Virus record (IMG/VR): IMGVR_UViG_3300044614_001923
DNA: 64,000 nt
Strand: one strand, 5' to 3'
Origin: a virus
Lineage: Duplodnaviria; Caudoviricetes
In this document: in pieces, positions 13,243-53,762 of the stretch
How positions within the stretch are numbered: position 1 is the stretch's first letter
Layout of the letters: the number at the start of each line of letters is the position of its first letter
Made by a program: the position numbers and the translations under genes
The notes under the pieces: model-generated
The model's database searches: none
The model's input: only the letters and a program-made list of their open reading frames with translations
What the model was told of the DNA's origin: nothing

Positions 13243-14484
13243 TCAACGCTTGATCACGGAAACTGCCGCCTCACCGCGCTCAAAAATGGTATCCACCACT
13301 GCCTGAACCTTCTTAGCGGTGCTGATCCCGACCTTGTTGAAAACGGGGACGCACACCAGACCAAAGGATTTGGAATACTGATCCAGGTTGCCAGGTTGGA
13401 TTGAACCATCACGAAGACCCTTTGCGTCATCATGATGCAACCTGATCACACGCCCAATAGTCTGACTGATGCCAATGTAATCCATAGAGCGCATGAAGAC
13501 CACCGCCTCAAGACCAGACACGTTGATACCTTCACTGAGGATACTGTGGTGAAGAACAACAAACTTCTTGTCGTTATCCTTACCCCAAGCACTTAGAGTG
13601 TCAAAGAAGACTTCACGGTTGACCTTTTGACCATCAATCACACCACCAGTCTTAGCACTGATATACATGTAGGAATACCCACGATCAGCAAGTTGCTGAC
13701 AGAAATCAGACTCAGAGACAAGACTGACAATTTGCTTGACTGCCTTAGCACAGATCAGGATCTTACCAACACCATGCTCATCAATGGTTTCCAGCAGATT
13801 CTCAGAATCAACCTCAGCAACTTGCATACCCTTAGGAACAAGGGGAAGTTGCTTGACTGCAACCTTAGGAGGAACAATGAAACCACCCTGCACAAGTTCA
13901 GGAGCAGGAACTTTACAGATCACTTGACCATAGACAGCAGCATCATTCATGCCAGGTTTGAAAACAGTGGCAGAATGCTTAGGAGTAGCAGTGAAGAAAT
14001 AGCAGCGGTCAGCAGCAGAAGAGAAATGCTCGGTGGCAGGGAAGAAATGACGTTGAACAGAGTTATGTGCCTCATCAAAGTAAATGGTATCAACATGAAT
14101 GTCTGCTGCCTGCAGACGGTTCAGAGAATGATAGGTCGTAAAGATCAGTTTGTGAGCAGAAGAATTGCTCTCAACCCACTGACGGATCACATAAGGGCGA
14201 GTAGAAGACTCGTGATGAGTCTCGCCACTGTGAACGTGGAAAACATGAGCATTGGTAACATGCTCAAGAAACTCACTAGACAGTTGCTCAGCGAGCAGAA
14301 TGCGCGGAGCAACAACTACAATAGTTTTAGGAGTCTCGGACTCAAGCAGGCGTAGCGTATCAACAATCATCTTGAGAGTCTTGCCACCGCCAGTGGGCAC
14401 GATGATCTGACCCTTACGGTGCTGCAGCATAGCAGCGGTGCCACGTTCTTGATGGGGGCGGAGGAGAGGAATCACAGCGGTCAT
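13243..14484 (-). CDS. superfamily 2 DExH helicase (ResIII-like)
   Basis: LRPHQ Q-motif, VPTGGGKT Walker A, DEAH, TAT motif III, LSEGINV, QTIGRVIR; likely start MTAVIP. Confidence 0.9.
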   Translation of the reverse strand: MTAVIPLLRPHQERGTAAMLQHRKGQIIVPTGGGKTLKMIVDTLRLLESETPKTIVVVAPRILLAEQLSSEFLEHVTNAHVFHVHSGETHHESSTRPYVIRQWVESNSSAHKLIFTTYHSLNRLQAADIHVDTIYFDEAHNSVQRHFFPATEHFSSAADRCYFFTATPKHSATVFKPGMNDAAVYGQVICKVPAPELVQGGFIVPPKVAVKQLPLVPKGMQVAEVDSENLLETIDEHGVGKILICAKAVKQIVSLVSESDFCQQLADRGYSYMYISAKTGGVIDGQKVNREVFFDTLSAWGKDNDKKFVVLHHSILSEGINVSGLEAVVFMRSMDYIGISQTIGRVIRLHHDDAKGLRDGSIQPGNLDQYSKSFGLVCVPVFNKVGISTAKKVQAVVDTIFERGEAAVSVIKR

Positions 14485-14499
14485 CAATTCAATAAAGTT

Positions 14500-14557
14500 A
14501 TTATACGGCAAAAAGACCCCCCATAGAGGGTCTATGTGACACTAGAAGAACTGGTCC
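14500..14557 (-). promoter_or_regulatory. early-type promoter element: GTGACAC-N8-CTGGTCC, 30 nt, TATAAT
   Basis: repeated motif with conserved spacing upstream of the helicase. Confidence 0.75.
14510..14533 (-). terminator. intrinsic terminator AGACCC-loop-GGGTCT-TTTT inside the promoter spacer
   Basis: GC hairpin plus U tract just past the stop of the small methyltransferase. Confidence 0.65.
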
Positions 14558-14955
14558 AGTGTCACCTCAGCAGGTGTTCCGTCAAAGCGGTAATGATAAG
14601 TTAGAGCATCTGCTTTTACATAGTGAGGATGAGTTATTGAAACTCCCAGACGCTCACATAGTTCTTTATGATTATCTTCTTGAAATTCTATCACATAAAG
14701 CATGTTATCCAAAACATGCTGTTCATCATGATATTGACATAAAAGTTCTTTGAGTCTGATAGAAAAATTGCCAGATCCAGCACAAAGATCCAAAAATTTA
14801 GCATTAGGATCTTTTAGTTTATCCAATGGAATCTGATCAAGCATATCATTGACAAGATCTGGAGGAGTAAAAACCTCTCCAGTATTGTCAATTCTATCTT
14901 TTGTTCTTTCAATATCAGACCCAATGTTTTTTACCTTAGTTTGCTTTGTTGACAT
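14542..14955 (-). CDS. truncated DNA amino-methyltransferase, SAM-binding half only (motifs X-I-II-III)
   Basis: GEVFTPPDLVNDML, KFLDLCAGSGNF, VIEFQEDN, VKADAL; ends without an NPPY/DPPY motif; likely start MSTKQ. Confidence 0.8.
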   Translation of the reverse strand: MSTKQTKVKNIGSDIERTKDRIDNTGEVFTPPDLVNDMLDQIPLDKLKDPNAKFLDLCAGSGNFSIRLKELLCQYHDEQHVLDNMLYVIEFQEDNHKELCERLGVSITHPHYVKADALTYHYRFDGTPAEVTLDQFF

Positions 14956-17900
14956 AGTAAGGATTGGGGATGACATTTAACATAGAGCAAACAGTTCGGA
15001 AACCACCACTCAACTGACATGCCTCGCGGTAGGTGTTTGCCTCCTCAGAGTTGAGAAACTCCATAATAGCATGACCCTCCTCCTCACTGTCAACTAGTAT
15101 GTACATACTATTATCTGTCACACCATACTTACCATCATCATAGTAGGGGTAAAAGTTACCACCTTCCTTAAAGATGACTTTCTTTTGCTGATAGTATGGT
15201 TGAGGTTTCTTATCATAAACAAACTCAGGTTCTCCGTTAGGAGTAGTTTTGTTTACATTTACATAGCAACCTTCAAAGTAAACAGTAGGATCAAACTTAT
15301 TGGGATTTTTCTTATCTTTGAAACGTGGAGCGCGTCCAACAGCAGCATTCAGACGGGGAATAGATGCATCAGTATTCAGATACTTTTGAAGTAGATCTAG
15401 ACTGTGATTTGGTACAAAAGGATAATCACGGAAGTCTACATCAACCCACTCTTCAGATGCTTGAAAGCGGACTTTAGTAGGACCAGTGCGCTCCTCTTTG
15501 CAGTATGAATACCAATCATAAGAAGTGTTAGCATTGAAAACTTTAACACCTTCCTTAGAAGAATGAATAGAAAGTTTTTCTACCTGAACATCACGCATCA
15601 GATAGTGACGCTTATTGGTAGGTTTCCGTAGACCAGGAGGATGCACCATGATACCATAACCACCCTCTTTCAGCAGATTGTAACCAAGTTCCGCAAAATC
15701 TCCATAAGCAGACTTACCTGTTTTGTGGGAATTGATTGAATACGGAGGATTTGAAATTACGCCATCAAATTGGATTTTACCCATCAGACCCTCCAGGTCA
15801 GAGACCACGTTGATTGCACTATCCACACATTCTACCCTAAACAGGTGAGTTTGGCAAGACTCCCAGACCCAGATATTCTGGGCAGGGACGCCACACTTCT
15901 CAATCAGATAGGCAACTTGCGACCCAGAAGGATCACAAATCACAAGAATTTTGTGGTGAGGTTGAACATAATCTCCGATCATTTCAGAGAACATGTCATA
16001 AGGAATGCTGCGATGTTCTTTTGATGAGACTGAAAGTGTATCCAGAGTATCTGCGAAGGAATTCTTCATAGCAAGGGCAATATCTGTCGATACCTGAGAG
16101 ATACGATGCATTAGACGATTGTAGTTCAGAAGACCGTCATCAAGGCAACGTTCAATAATATTCTGATTATCACCAGTAGAACTGATGTAATAATCAGACT
16201 TCAGAACGTTATCAACAGAATTTACATTTTTACCATTACGCATTTCATAAAGAATTGTCAGAGGAATTGCTTCCAAAATAGACTTAATGGATTCTTTTTT
16301 GCGACTGAGTTCTTTATTATGAGCAGCAGGAGATTTACCTTCTACTTTTGTATTTGTCTTACCATTTGCACCATTATCATTCACTTCAGCACTTTTTGCG
16401 AGGTCTGAAGTAGAAGATTTGAGATCCAAGTTCATCTCAAATTCATTCAGTTTCTCCATATCAATATGATACACCGCACTTGCGATCAAAGAACGTGTAT
16501 CAGCAATATCACATGCAGTGATCTGATTGATTTGATCTTGAGTCATATGAACAAACTTATCTGCCCACTCTGAAATTGCAACAAATTCAATTGACTGATA
16601 GTTCAAAAGTTCTGGATTACTATCGCAAGCAATAGAATAAGATAAACGAATAGATTCTAGACACTTTTGGGGGGAAAATTCAATCACATTGTAATCATGA
16701 TCACCCGACCCACCACGCGATGCACCTTGAATCCAAAACTCAGTAGATTTGCCATCAGAGCAATTAATAACCGTATCAATATCTTTGACAGTTACCCCAA
16801 GAACATTTGCCCAACGAGTAATAATCATAGTCTTAGTATTCTCAGCAACATGCTTGCGAATCATGTCCGCATCAACACCAGACTCACCGATTGCAACAAG
16901 AGGAGAATAGTCCTTAATATAGTCTGCAATCAGTACACATGCTTCTGCACTAGGCATCAGCAAATATGCATGTTGAGTATCATTTAGAAGGCGATCTTTT
17001 GGATTACGAATGTGACGCTGAGTAGAAAGATAGTTATGCACAAAGTCAATTACCAGACTCTCATGTTCAAACTTACCATCTTTAATAGAAAAGATGTTGT
17101 TCATTGCATCAGGCAAGTCACCAAAGATTTTACGATACTCTTGAGACTCATACTTTGCGAGGATTACATGCATTTTGCCACGATGAAAAACACCGCGCTG
17201 AACGTCAAGTTGCTCATCAAAGTATGTGTAAATGAAAGTGTTCTCTTGAGAGAAATCAGATGCTAGTTTGAAAGCAGTTCCAGACACATACATGCAAGGA
17301 ACGTTCTTTAACTTAGAACGAATCTCTTTCCACTGCTTAGCACCATATCCGATATGGCATTCATCATAACAAAGAAAATCTACTTGATGAATGTCTTGGA
17401 TTTTATTCACAAGACCCTGAATTGTAGACCAAAGAATAACTTGAATACCTTCAACTTGCGACCAGTATTCTAATTGTTCTTTCCAATTTTTATCAGCAAG
17501 ACAGATATATCTAAAGTGATCAAAGTCTATAAAGTTCTCAGAATCTTCTTTCCAAGATTGTTCTGGAGACTTGCTACGAGAAACAATCAAAGAAATCTTA
17601 AACTTGCGATCTAGAATGTGGGAAAGAACCATCACTGATTTACCTGCGCGACACTTTGCCCACAAAAGAAACTCACAATATTCCTTATTTGCTTTCTTAA
17701 TAAACTCCACTTGATAAGGACGAGGAGTAAACTTTACTTTCTCATCAAGAATTTTCCCATCAAGAGAAAACTGCTTACAGCACATATCTACAATAATTTC
17801 TTCAGTGTATGAGTGATCTCCACGAAAAGCAAAAATTTCTTTATGCTTTTTTGAATATGGAAGAGTCTTCAAAAAAGCATGGATATCGTGATCACGACCA

Positions 17901-18094
17901 TCAAAGTCTTTAAAGAAAGCAATAACTCTATAATCCCCATTACCATCAGGTGAAATTGCTTCAAGCATTGCCCTTGCTTTGGAGTGATCCCCCATAGAAA
18001 GACGACCATTCACAAGATCTTGTTCAGTCTCACCGCATCCGATAATCAGATGAGGCATTTCAAAGTTGGGAGTGATAAAGTAAATGTTTTTCAT
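14936..18094 (-). CDS. restriction-modification-like fusion: putative GIY-YIG/T5orf172-like nuclease + SF2 helicase + N6-adenine methyltransferase/TRD
   Basis: N-terminal IYFITP..MPHLIIG..ET..RL...DHDIH..L...EIF; PRPYQ, AKCRAGKS, DECH; C-terminal FDGVISNPPY. Confidence 0.8.
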   Translation of the reverse strand: MKNIYFITPNFEMPHLIIGCGETEQDLVNGRLSMGDHSKARAMLEAISPDGNGDYRVIAFFKDFDGRDHDIHAFLKTLPYSKKHKEIFAFRGDHSYTEEIIVDMCCKQFSLDGKILDEKVKFTPRPYQVEFIKKANKEYCEFLLWAKCRAGKSVMVLSHILDRKFKISLIVSRSKSPEQSWKEDSENFIDFDHFRYICLADKNWKEQLEYWSQVEGIQVILWSTIQGLVNKIQDIHQVDFLCYDECHIGYGAKQWKEIRSKLKNVPCMYVSGTAFKLASDFSQENTFIYTYFDEQLDVQRGVFHRGKMHVILAKYESQEYRKIFGDLPDAMNNIFSIKDGKFEHESLVIDFVHNYLSTQRHIRNPKDRLLNDTQHAYLLMPSAEACVLIADYIKDYSPLVAIGESGVDADMIRKHVAENTKTMIITRWANVLGVTVKDIDTVINCSDGKSTEFWIQGASRGGSGDHDYNVIEFSPQKCLESIRLSYSIACDSNPELLNYQSIEFVAISEWADKFVHMTQDQINQITACDIADTRSLIASAVYHIDMEKLNEFEMNLDLKSSTSDLAKSAEVNDNGANGKTNTKVEGKSPAAHNKELSRKKESIKSILEAIPLTILYEMRNGKNVNSVDNVLKSDYYISSTGDNQNIIERCLDDGLLNYNRLMHRISQVSTDIALAMKNSFADTLDTLSVSSKEHRSIPYDMFSEMIGDYVQPHHKILVICDPSGSQVAYLIEKCGVPAQNIWVWESCQTHLFRVECVDSAINVVSDLEGLMGKIQFDGVISNPPYSINSHKTGKSAYGDFAELGYNLLKEGGYGIMVHPPGLRKPTNKRHYLMRDVQVEKLSIHSSKEGVKVFNANTSYDWYSYCKEERTGPTKVRFQASEEWVDVDFRDYPFVPNHSLDLLQKYLNTDASIPRLNAAVGRAPRFKDKKNPNKFDPTVYFEGCYVNVNKTTPNGEPEFVYDKKPQPYYQQKKVIFKEGGNFYPYYDDGKYGVTDNSMYILVDSEEEGHAIMEFLNSEEANTYREACQLSGGFRTVCSMLNVIPNPYYVNKAN

Positions 18095-18131
18095 TAGTCT
18101 TAAAGAATGGTCATCAACCTTGACAAGGCAG

Positions 18132-18161
18132 ATTATAAGGGAAATCTTAGGGGTGTGTCAA
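18132..18161 (-). promoter_or_regulatory. sigma70-like promoter TTGACA-N18-TATAAT for the RM-like gene
   Basis: consensus hexamers 38 nt upstream of ATG 18094. Confidence 0.75.
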
Positions 18162-18602
18162 GCGGTTTGGAAAAGAATACACAAAGTCATTTAAACCAAG
18201 ATATTCGATATACAAAAGTTCTTCCATTTGTCTTGCTTCAATTTCCCATGGTTGATTTTCATACTCAGTTTCAGTATAATCTATACCTCTCCAAAGACGT
18301 TTACCATGTTTGTCTTTAAGATTGCCCATAACATGCTGATAGACATGCCATAGTTCATGAAACAAAGTTTTGAGATAGTGATCTGAATTCATACGATTAT
18401 GAATCTCAATTTCAAACTCTCTAGGACGGTAATTGCAATCCATAACCGTACACCATCCATAAACTCCTTCACGCATCAATCCGCGATGATTGATTTCTAT
18501 CTCAAGTTTATGTCTTGGTAGATACTTTGCAATAAACCACTCTGTAGCGTTAATACAACGTTTCTTGCTATAGTTGCGTCCAGAGATATACAATGTAAGC
18601 AT
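18147..18602 (-). CDS. zinc metallopeptidase-like protein (HExxH, SprT-like)
   Basis: TLFHELWHVYQ and QPWEIEA. Confidence 0.75.
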   Translation of the reverse strand: MLTLYISGRNYSKKRCINATEWFIAKYLPRHKLEIEINHRGLMREGVYGWCTVMDCNYRPREFEIEIHNRMNSDHYLKTLFHELWHVYQHVMGNLKDKHGKRLWRGIDYTETEYENQPWEIEARQMEELLYIEYLGLNDFVYSFPNRLTHP

Positions 18603-18727: not shown

Positions 18728-18785
18728 ACAATAACCCCACCCAGAGATATCTGAGCGGGGTGTGTGACACTTTCTAAACTGTCAT
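18728..18785 (-). promoter_or_regulatory. early-type promoter element: GTGACAC-N8-CTGTCAT, 30 nt, TATTGT
   Basis: repeated motif at the border between the late glycan island and the early region. Confidence 0.7.
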
Positions 18786-53733: not shown

Positions 53734-53762
53734 ATTATAAGATATTTAATTATTTTTGTCAA
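53734..53762 (-). promoter_or_regulatory. perfect sigma70 promoter TTGACA-N17-TATAAT
   Basis: exact consensus hexamers and spacer. Confidence 0.85.

Follow-up and report, generated by a model that had tools for sequence, protein, structure and literature searches.

A compact two-gene T5orf172-type variant of the Type ISP design in a T4-like cyanophage: a candidate ATP-dependent restriction-modification-like enzyme

The viral contig IMGVR_UViG_3300044614_001923, of which 64 kb out of 64.8 kb were analysed in the present work (hereafter, the window), carries a large gene, P0001, whose product of 1052 amino acids (aa) joins a T5orf172-type head, a helicase-like motor and a DNA methylase, and, immediately downstream of it, a small gene, P0122, which codes for the front half of a methylase. 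These two genes constitute the functional unit and represent a compact, phage-borne member of a T5orf172-type branch of the Type ISP design, which is widespread and has so far escaped characterisation. As for their role, the sequences and the structural models make us lean, if slightly, towards a restriction-modification (RM)-like enzyme that would depend on ATP and would be made early in infection. A preliminary description of the locus, based on the DNA letters, concerned P0001; the partner gene, as well as the membership of the unit in a large family that includes genes of bacterial plasmids, are additions of this analysis.

P0001 is a single intact open reading frame (ORF; 14936..18094) with an ATG start and zero internal stops. 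Its full-length AlphaFold (AF2) model has a mean predicted local distance difference test (pLDDT) of 72, being good at residues 1-560 and 594-870 and poor at 562-591 and 885-1052, and consists of an alpha/beta head, two RecA-like lobes, a helical coupler, a Rossmann methylase and an unresolved C-terminal region. In the Foldseek search of this model against the PDB chains, the first rank was taken by LlaBIII (4xqk; E 1.5e-16 over 1038 columns), with LlaGI (5ffj) in third place. With VIA-align, LlaBIII (Z 17.3 over model residues 118-889) was the sole match spanning motor, coupler and methylase, and on the motor alone Snf2-type and other superfamily 2 (SF2) motors tie with it. The preliminary description had depicted the protein as Type ISP-like with another nuclease, and its domains as a T5orf172/MUG113-like head, an SF2 helicase, a linker and a methyltransferase, in this order; the former idea agrees with LlaBIII and LlaGI being the best PDB matches of the full-length model, and the latter is recovered by Pfam, by the AF2 map and by the fold and profile comparisons.

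Probing P0001 with Pfam retrieved ResIII (residues 122-273), an Eco57I methylase (771-823; 26.1 bits vs. a cut-off of 25.3) and a weak TaqI_C (960-1027, E 0.0086); PHROG 22930, a family of unknown function, spans residues 3-706, coupler included, and no meaningful match was obtained with NCBIfam. The motor harbors the motifs Q (PRPYQ, 124-128), I (AKCRAGKS, 146-153), II (DECH, 244-247), III (SGTA), V (ANVLGVT) and VI (QGASRGGSG), and the strings PRPYQ, AGKS and DECH had indeed been singled out beforehand. The alignment of 47 homologues shows no variation in motifs I, II, III, V or VI, the invariant columns including K152, S153, D244, E245, G272, T273, A274, Q456, R460 and G461. According to VIA-align, the motor matches LlaBIII and Snf2-type motors with Z 16-17, T4 UvsW and RadD also being among its structural matches.

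The methylase domain shows the motifs X (IPYDMF), I (CDPSGSQ), II (VWES) and IV (NPPY, 782-785). The fused homologues keep motifs X (IP..L..M), I (DPSG), II (VWE) and IV (NPPY) despite having methylase domains that are only 20-28% identical. Furthermore, in the model this domain has all seven strands of a Rossmann fold (pLDDT 84-94) and superposes on the CamA methylase with a VIA-align Z of 16.2. The C-terminal region is a putative target-recognition domain (TRD). The proposal of a TRD made in the preliminary description is retained as such, the TaqI_C match being weak and the model of the region of low confidence. The same region is the fastest-diverging part of the protein, with an identity of 15-24% where the helicase retains about 50%.

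The head has a confident AF2 model (pLDDT 86.9), and on sequence and model grounds we assign it to the T5orf172 branch of the GIY-YIG superfamily, because three independent lines, that is fold, kinship and profile comparison, place it there. Concerning the fold, the head model retrieved T5orf172/MUG113-annotated clusters from the ESM Atlas at template modelling (TM) scores of 0.58-0.62, T5orf172-ResIII fusions among them, and the exhaustive VIA-align comparison with the PDB gave as the best match the GIY-YIG resolvase At-HIGLE (Z 5.2, 92 residues, 3.4 Å), other matches being Slx1 (Z 3.9 and 3.8) and PD-T4-3 (Z 3.3). Model, Atlas and VIA-align agree on a GIY-YIG-type alpha/beta fold at the N-terminus, where the preliminary description had expected a nuclease. 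Foldseek did not retrieve any PDB match of the head below E 1, nor did the head profiles of the family (A2) and of its distant relatives (A5) find anything among the PDB sequences; the Pfam GIY-YIG model (PF01541) was matched weakly by just three of the 42 family N-domains (best E 0.013).

Concerning kinship, the N-termini of the distant full-length relatives described below match Pfam T5orf172/MUG113 in 12 out of 16 cases (best E 4.6e-13, PF10544). The hhalign comparison of the two profiles, A2 from the cyanophage heads and A5 from the N-domains of those relatives, yielded a probability of 96.1% (E 3e-9, 87 columns), in a register that pairs IY, G.G.T (for KIG.T), R, H and E.F (for EWF). The residues G21, R31, D36, K39, H72, E86 and F88 are invariant in the family, R31 and E86 in 42 sequences, and the latter two align with the Arg and with the Glu of the EWF motif in the T5orf172-positive relatives. 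The N-domains compared are just 17-35% identical, yet the equivalents of this Arg and Glu are invariant. The alignment indicates that R31 and E86 correspond to the catalytic Arg and to the metal-binding Glu of GIY-YIG nucleases; the same pair is kept by Gp88/Odn of phage ICP1, a T5orf172 nuclease whose activity was shown experimentally (PMC8263062).

The P0122 ORF, which starts with the ATG at 14955, overlaps the last 20 nt of the P0001 ORF. Its product corresponds to the front half of a gamma-class methylase: motif X (EVFTPP) is present, motif I has its canonical form (LDLCAGSGNF), motifs II and III can be recognised as well, and the protein ends just before the expected NPPY. The P0122 family embeds 576 members of nearly uniform length, which are 57-90% identical and thus conserved far more than the large protein that they accompany (~40%). 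Besides the motifs for S-adenosylmethionine (SAM), residues H83, H103, C107, H116 and H118 are invariant, which suggests that the protein may hold a metal site. The profile scan of all the fetched loci revealed that a P0122-family gene adjoins every P0001 homologue examined: in nine independent loci it immediately follows the methylase part, whereas in Synechococcus phage ACG-2014f it immediately precedes the large gene. P0122-like genes also adjoin other Eco57I-type methylases, i.e., those of Bellamy, of S-SKS1 and of another ACG-2014f isolate.

On the basis of its motifs, P0122 is most likely a SAM-binding half-methylase subunit devoid of the catalytic loop, which would bind the cofactor for the methylase module or regulate it. 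The P0122 profile did not align by hhalign with the methylase domain of P0001 itself, and reached just 63% probability with the front half of a distant relative (P0378); the prediction of a complex between P0122 and residues 594-1052 of P0001 scored 0.00, a value that speaks neither for nor against binding. The possibility that the SAM-binding half of P0001 had decayed and been replaced by P0122 was also considered, and it is unsupported as stated: the Rossmann fold of P0001 is complete and its motifs X, I, II and IV are conserved, although motif I is off-consensus. A further, tentative idea, to which we give a rather low probability, is that the P0122 family is the essential third component defining an uncharacterised class of ATP-dependent RM systems common to bacterial plasmids and lytic phages. 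P0122 would then be a SAM-dependent switch, or a cofactor module acting in trans, for a methylase with an off-consensus motif I; the partner would be fixed in the cyanophage backbone and the motor/methylase cassettes swapped beside it, which would equip the phage with a replaceable weapon to be turned on the DNA of the host and on competing phages.

Table 1. Position of the features of the two-gene unit in the window (residue numbers refer to P0001)
Feature	Position	Strand	Basis
CDS (coding sequence) P0001, nuclease-motor-methylase protein, 1052 aa	14936..18094, including the stop codon	minus	ORF; 396 homologues
N-terminal T5orf172/GIY-YIG-type domain, residues 1-118 (predicted)	17741..18094	minus	Model, fold matches, hhalign
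SF2 DExH ATPase/translocase, two RecA-like lobes, residues 119-560	16415..17740	minus	Pfam ResIII, motifs, VIA-align
Low-confidence loop (562-591), then helical coupler (594-706) between motor and methylase	15977..16414	minus	AF2 secondary structure, pLDDT
Gamma-class N6-adenine methyltransferase domain, residues 707-880	15455..15976	minus	Pfam Eco57I, alignment, model
Putative target-recognition domain, residues 881-1052	14939..15454	minus	Weak TaqI_C; divergence
Partner gene P0122, PHROG 4376, 137 aa	14542..14955 (144 aa if the start is 14976)	minus	ORF, motifs, 576 homologues
Sigma-70 consensus promoter, TTGACA / 18-nt spacer / TATAAT	18132..18161	minus	12/12 match; conserved in L003 and L004
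G+C-rich hairpin and T-run just 3' of the P0122 stop	14518..14530	minus	Sequence; TATAAT of the next gene follows

The promoter of the unit is located ~38 nt upstream of the ATG of P0001, represents the sole 12/12 sigma-70 match in the 9 kb between positions 12 and 21 kb of the window, and occupies the same position in the two closest relatives of P0001 (L003 and L004); in the whole window, two exact matches were observed vs. 0.07 expected. A consensus sigma70 promoter had already been recognised in the preliminary description, which extended the element from 14936 to 18161; the first of these positions holds, while the coding sequence reaches only up to 18094 and 18161 belongs to the -35 hexamer of the promoter. 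From this promoter we infer that P0001 is expressed early in infection. On the opposite side, the unit probably terminates at the hairpin with its T-run.

The gene content of the window is that of a T4-like cyanophage, with every gene on one strand. Metagenomes of lakes and freshwater dated 2016-2025 contain DNA nearly identical to the locus; the search of RNA sequencing runs did not retrieve any run holding the locus, the hits being lake and freshwater DNA metagenomes only, and megablast did not reveal any match of the locus in isolated phages. Downstream of P0122, a gene coding for a 422-aa SF2 helicase (13243-14511) was considered as a possible part of the system and rejected, being near-core in cyanomyoviruses (425 cyanophage records), located elsewhere in ACG-2014f and provided with its own upstream element. 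This gene has a G+C content of 45-49% vs. about 30-37% around it, and its translation probably begins at the ATG near 14484 and not at the TTG at 14511. Upstream of P0001, a 151-aa ORF (18147-18602, PHROG 10499) weakly matches SprT-like zinc peptidases; its last codons are overlapped by the -35 hexamer of the P0001 promoter, and a strong hairpin with a 12-bp stem (18734-18761) lies just upstream of it. The other exact promoter of the window (TTGACA-N17-TATAAT, 53734-53762, minus strand) is found upstream of the region of a 1794-aa structural gene.

The analysis of the close homologues revealed that the P0001 family is confined to cyanomyoviruses, where it behaves as an accessory and exchangeable cassette. 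The homologues exist in two forms, a fused one (~1040-1055 aa) and a split one (~700 aa), the latter always directly followed by an Eco57I-like gene of 245-351 aa. Among the isolated phages, just 10 records harbor a P0001 homologue vs. 425 with the neighbouring 422-aa helicase. A homologue that is 80% identical to P0001 (P0009) has a head only 33% identical to that of P0001, and the remaining protein 86-89% identical; this indicates a swap of the head by a recombination that occurred exactly at the boundary between head and helicase.

Moreover, two ACG-2014f isolates, whose flanks are 96% identical, carry different cassettes at the same site (L002:3994-7079 vs. L012:5469-8939): in the former, a T5orf172-helicase protein plus a methylase; in the latter, a 200-aa unknown protein, a 393-aa Eco57I-type methylase and a 483-aa helicase. 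The P0122-like gene of both isolates sits in the shared flank. Restriction-like modules thus seem to be exchanged at this site with particular ease, as in a hot spot. The ~200-aa protein of the second cassette was checked as a candidate T5orf172 domain, which it is not according to hhalign. In Prochlorococcus phage P-SSM2 (L011:1319-5382), a P0122-like gene follows two proteins of 1147 and 193 aa (PSSM2_035 and PSSM2_036), neither of which matched Pfam or the P0001 family profile; this pair may be a further kind of cassette, the third one, which has gone unrecognised at the corresponding site.

A profile search on 1.84 billion proteins retrieved, beyond the close family, more distant relatives (1100-1520 aa) that are collinear over their full length, with HMMER E-values of 1e-48 to 1e-25 over nearly the whole profile; for instance, P0284, P0294, P0298, P0299 and P0325 match profile positions ~5-1000 (E 1e-48 to 1e-32). 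Their Pfam content is T5orf172, ResIII and Eco57I. They were found both in uncultured phages of the human gut and in bacteria, here on 85 plasmids, 33 of which from Enterococcus and nine from Lactococcus. In plasmid pRS5 of Pediococcus pentosaceus, a 1417-aa ORF lies beside a toxin-antitoxin pair and an integrase, and is matched at 1e-117 by the REBASE-derived PADLOC profile for Type IIG enzymes, REase_MTase_IIG (PDLC03626). In Variovorax sp. WDL1, the methylase is a protein of its own, and head and helicase are joined in another one, annotated as 'GIY-YIG nuclease family'. The Pfam domain set of these two systems is the same as that of the distant relatives of P0001.

In both of them a small methylase-like gene without NPPY is found directly upstream (L020:2188-3108, 306 aa, in Pediococcus; L021:3163-3987, 274 aa, in Variovorax). 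By hhalign, the P0122 family aligns with the Variovorax partner with 96% probability (E 1e-9) and with the Pediococcus one with just 59%. PADLOC labels the Pediococcus partner as MTase_II despite the absence of a catalytic loop. Overall, the proteins of plasmids and gut phages resemble those of cyanophages in their collinear matches to the hidden Markov model, in the same Pfam set, in the existence of fused and split versions and in the small NPPY-less neighbour; they differ in that the identity with the cyanophage proteins is only about 20-30%, in that the latter are shorter (about 1040-1055 vs. 1100-1520 aa) and in that the cyanophage partner is half as large as the bacterial one (137 vs. 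274-306 aa).

According to the sequence comparisons, all three enzymatic modules are under purifying selection, and the combination of a fast-diverging TRD with a swapped head allele is typical of RM conflict systems. The conserved motifs in the three modules, the chain with its Type ISP-like layout, a specificity end that evolves fast and is shuffled, the exchange of cassettes and the kinship with plasmid genes found in mobile, defence-like contexts point to a conflict system; this, in turn, makes an ATP-dependent RM-like enzyme the most likely function. The following scenario can be depicted. Early in infection, the host RNA polymerase would start from the consensus sigma-70 promoter and transcribe both genes. 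The C-terminal methylase-TRD portion would read a short, probably asymmetric site and methylate its adenine at N6 using SAM, thus marking the phage DNA as self. At an unmodified site, the SF2 motor would hydrolyse ATP and pull in double-stranded DNA, which the N-terminal T5orf172 domain would nick, double-strand breaks probably deriving from the collision or stalling of the enzymes. The targets would be the unmethylated DNA in the infected cell, i.e., the host chromosome and/or co-infecting rival phages.

Several data weigh against an enzyme of this kind. Pfam did not reveal any T5orf172 (PF10544), MUG113 (PF13455) or GIY-YIG match on P0001 itself, and the Z values of the head with the solved GIY-YIG nucleases (3.3-5.2) are weak on their own. 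Motif I of the methylase (DPSGSQ) is off-consensus, though conserved. When PADLOC was run on P0001, the profile PDLC03626 was not reached, the only matches being mad2 and MTase_I, both at the NPPY region. No sequence similarity with LlaGI or LlaBIII was found by phmmer (E up to 1) or by profile hmmsearch (E up to 0.1) on the PDB sequences, and a pattern scan of 185,579 prokaryote genomes using the close-family alignment did not retrieve any member, the method being tied to family-specific peptides. Moreover, a lytic phage would need its own replicating DNA to be kept modified in order to survive such an enzyme. As to the literature, the DnmA-YeeB-YeeC system of Bacillus subtilis gave neither restriction nor phage protection (PMC9973331), and T5orf172 domains can become non-cutting DNA binders, the ICP1/PLE literature including CapR, described as a domesticated endonuclease (PMC8096241); no study of the cyanophage P0001 genes, and no biochemistry or genetics of any single-chain T5orf172 form, was found in the literature.

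The cases of DnmA and CapR bear on another explanation, which we regard as unlikely but still deserving attention, according to which P0001 works mainly as a motor-assisted DNA adenine methylase that protects the phage DNA from host restriction, the T5orf172 head being a non-cutting, DNA-binding or regulatory module. DnmA does methylate without detectable restriction (PMC9973331) and non-cutting, domesticated T5orf172 proteins such as CapR are known (PMC8096241); phage-borne methylases are common, neighbouring cyanophage loci carry other ones, e.g., dam, and the methylase motifs of P0001 are conserved. However, the equivalents of the GIY-YIG catalytic Arg and Glu do not vary across N-domains that share so little sequence, and the ATPase motifs, of which a plain protective methylase needs none, are all invariant. 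In addition, a single narrow specificity would counter just one cognate restriction system, and the plasmid relatives lie in defence-like, mobile contexts.

With still lower probability, the unit might be a selfish, homing-like cassette, whose nuclease would mainly cut co-infecting relatives lacking the cassette or its methylation and which would then be copied into them by recombinational repair, to the benefit of the cassette and not of the phage. Its molecular mechanism would be the same as that of the RM-like enzyme, the beneficiary alone being different. Classical homing endonucleases are without motor and methylase and no target site was identified in the cassette-free relatives; on the other hand, the clean replacement of cassettes between the 96%-identical flanks of the ACG-2014f isolates, the swapping of N-domain alleles and the patchy distribution (10 phage records only) speak for it, and in other phages T5orf172 homing endonuclease genes mark the boundaries of exchange (PMC10448857). 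Lastly, a helicase-nuclease for replication, recombination or repair, processing forks or junctions with the methylase-like part only as a DNA clamp, is very improbable: the motor does resemble T4 UvsW and RadD in structure, At-HIGLE, to which the head comes closest in the PDB, resolves Holliday junctions and a role in recombination has been proposed for T5orf172 proteins (PMC7824862), but the gene is accessory and exchangeable rather than core, the NPPY loop and the SAM motifs are conserved, the TRD is hypervariable, an Eco57I-type methylase is always fused or adjacent, and relatives reside on small plasmids.

To our knowledge, the restriction enzymes that combine a single chain with a motor have been studied in detail in just two cases, both encoded by lactococcal plasmids and equipped with an Mrr nuclease. 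The present data show that a compact T5orf172/GIY-YIG version of the Type ISP design exists in lytic T4-like cyanophages of lakes and oceans. If active, it would provide a rare example of a virulent phage with its own ATP-dependent RM weapon, which might serve to destroy the host genome or to exclude other phages, in picocyanobacteria of global importance. Furthermore, the short cyanophage proteins would represent convenient material for biochemical work on a defence family that is very widespread and unstudied, and for the role of its half-methylase subunit; the significance of the system would be greater if this partner turned out to regulate the enzyme, or to supply its cofactor, as a subunit of a novel type.

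Among the characterised systems, Gp88/Odn of ICP1 and the T5orf172 homing-type nucleases share with P0001 the catalytic Arg and Glu, the phage origin and the propensity to domain shuffling (PMC8263062, PMC10448857); Odn differs from it in being small, in finding its targets via a RepA-like DNA-binding domain, and in having neither motor nor methylase. The DnmA(YeeA)-YeeB-YeeC systems are alike by description, combining an N6-adenine methylase for asymmetric sites with its TRD, an SF2/DEAD helicase and a T5orf172/GIY-YIG protein. Their parts are coded for by three separate genes in another order, whereas the P0001 family has one ORF, or two when split, and P0001 runs as nuclease, helicase and methylase; moreover, their methylase is MmeI-like and much larger, and a half-methylase partner is not described there. 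A restriction mechanism was proposed for the three-gene YeeA-YeeB-YeeC cluster by Morgan et al. 2009, who also remarked on large single polypeptides combining endonuclease, helicase, methylase and TRD (PMC2731913), and homologues of DnmA-YeeB-YeeC in Vibrio crassostreae reportedly affect phage sensitivity (PMC9973331). Relatives with GIY-YIG nucleases were remarked on by Sisakova et al. (PMC3553950).

In layout, P0001 resembles the Type ISP enzymes LlaGI and LlaBIII (5ffj and 4xqk), in which one polypeptide likewise joins a nuclease, an SF2 ATPase, a helical coupler, a gamma-class N6-adenine methylase and a TRD. LlaGI and LlaBIII use an Mrr-family PD-(D/E)xK nuclease, whereas that of P0001 is of the T5orf172/GIY-YIG type. 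P0001 is also about 500 residues shorter, has, unlike them, an obligate half-methylase partner gene, and is encoded by a lytic phage rather than by a bacterial plasmid. The match being seen at the level of the fold only and the nuclease being a different one, the layout is Type ISP-like and P0001 is best placed outside the Type ISP family.

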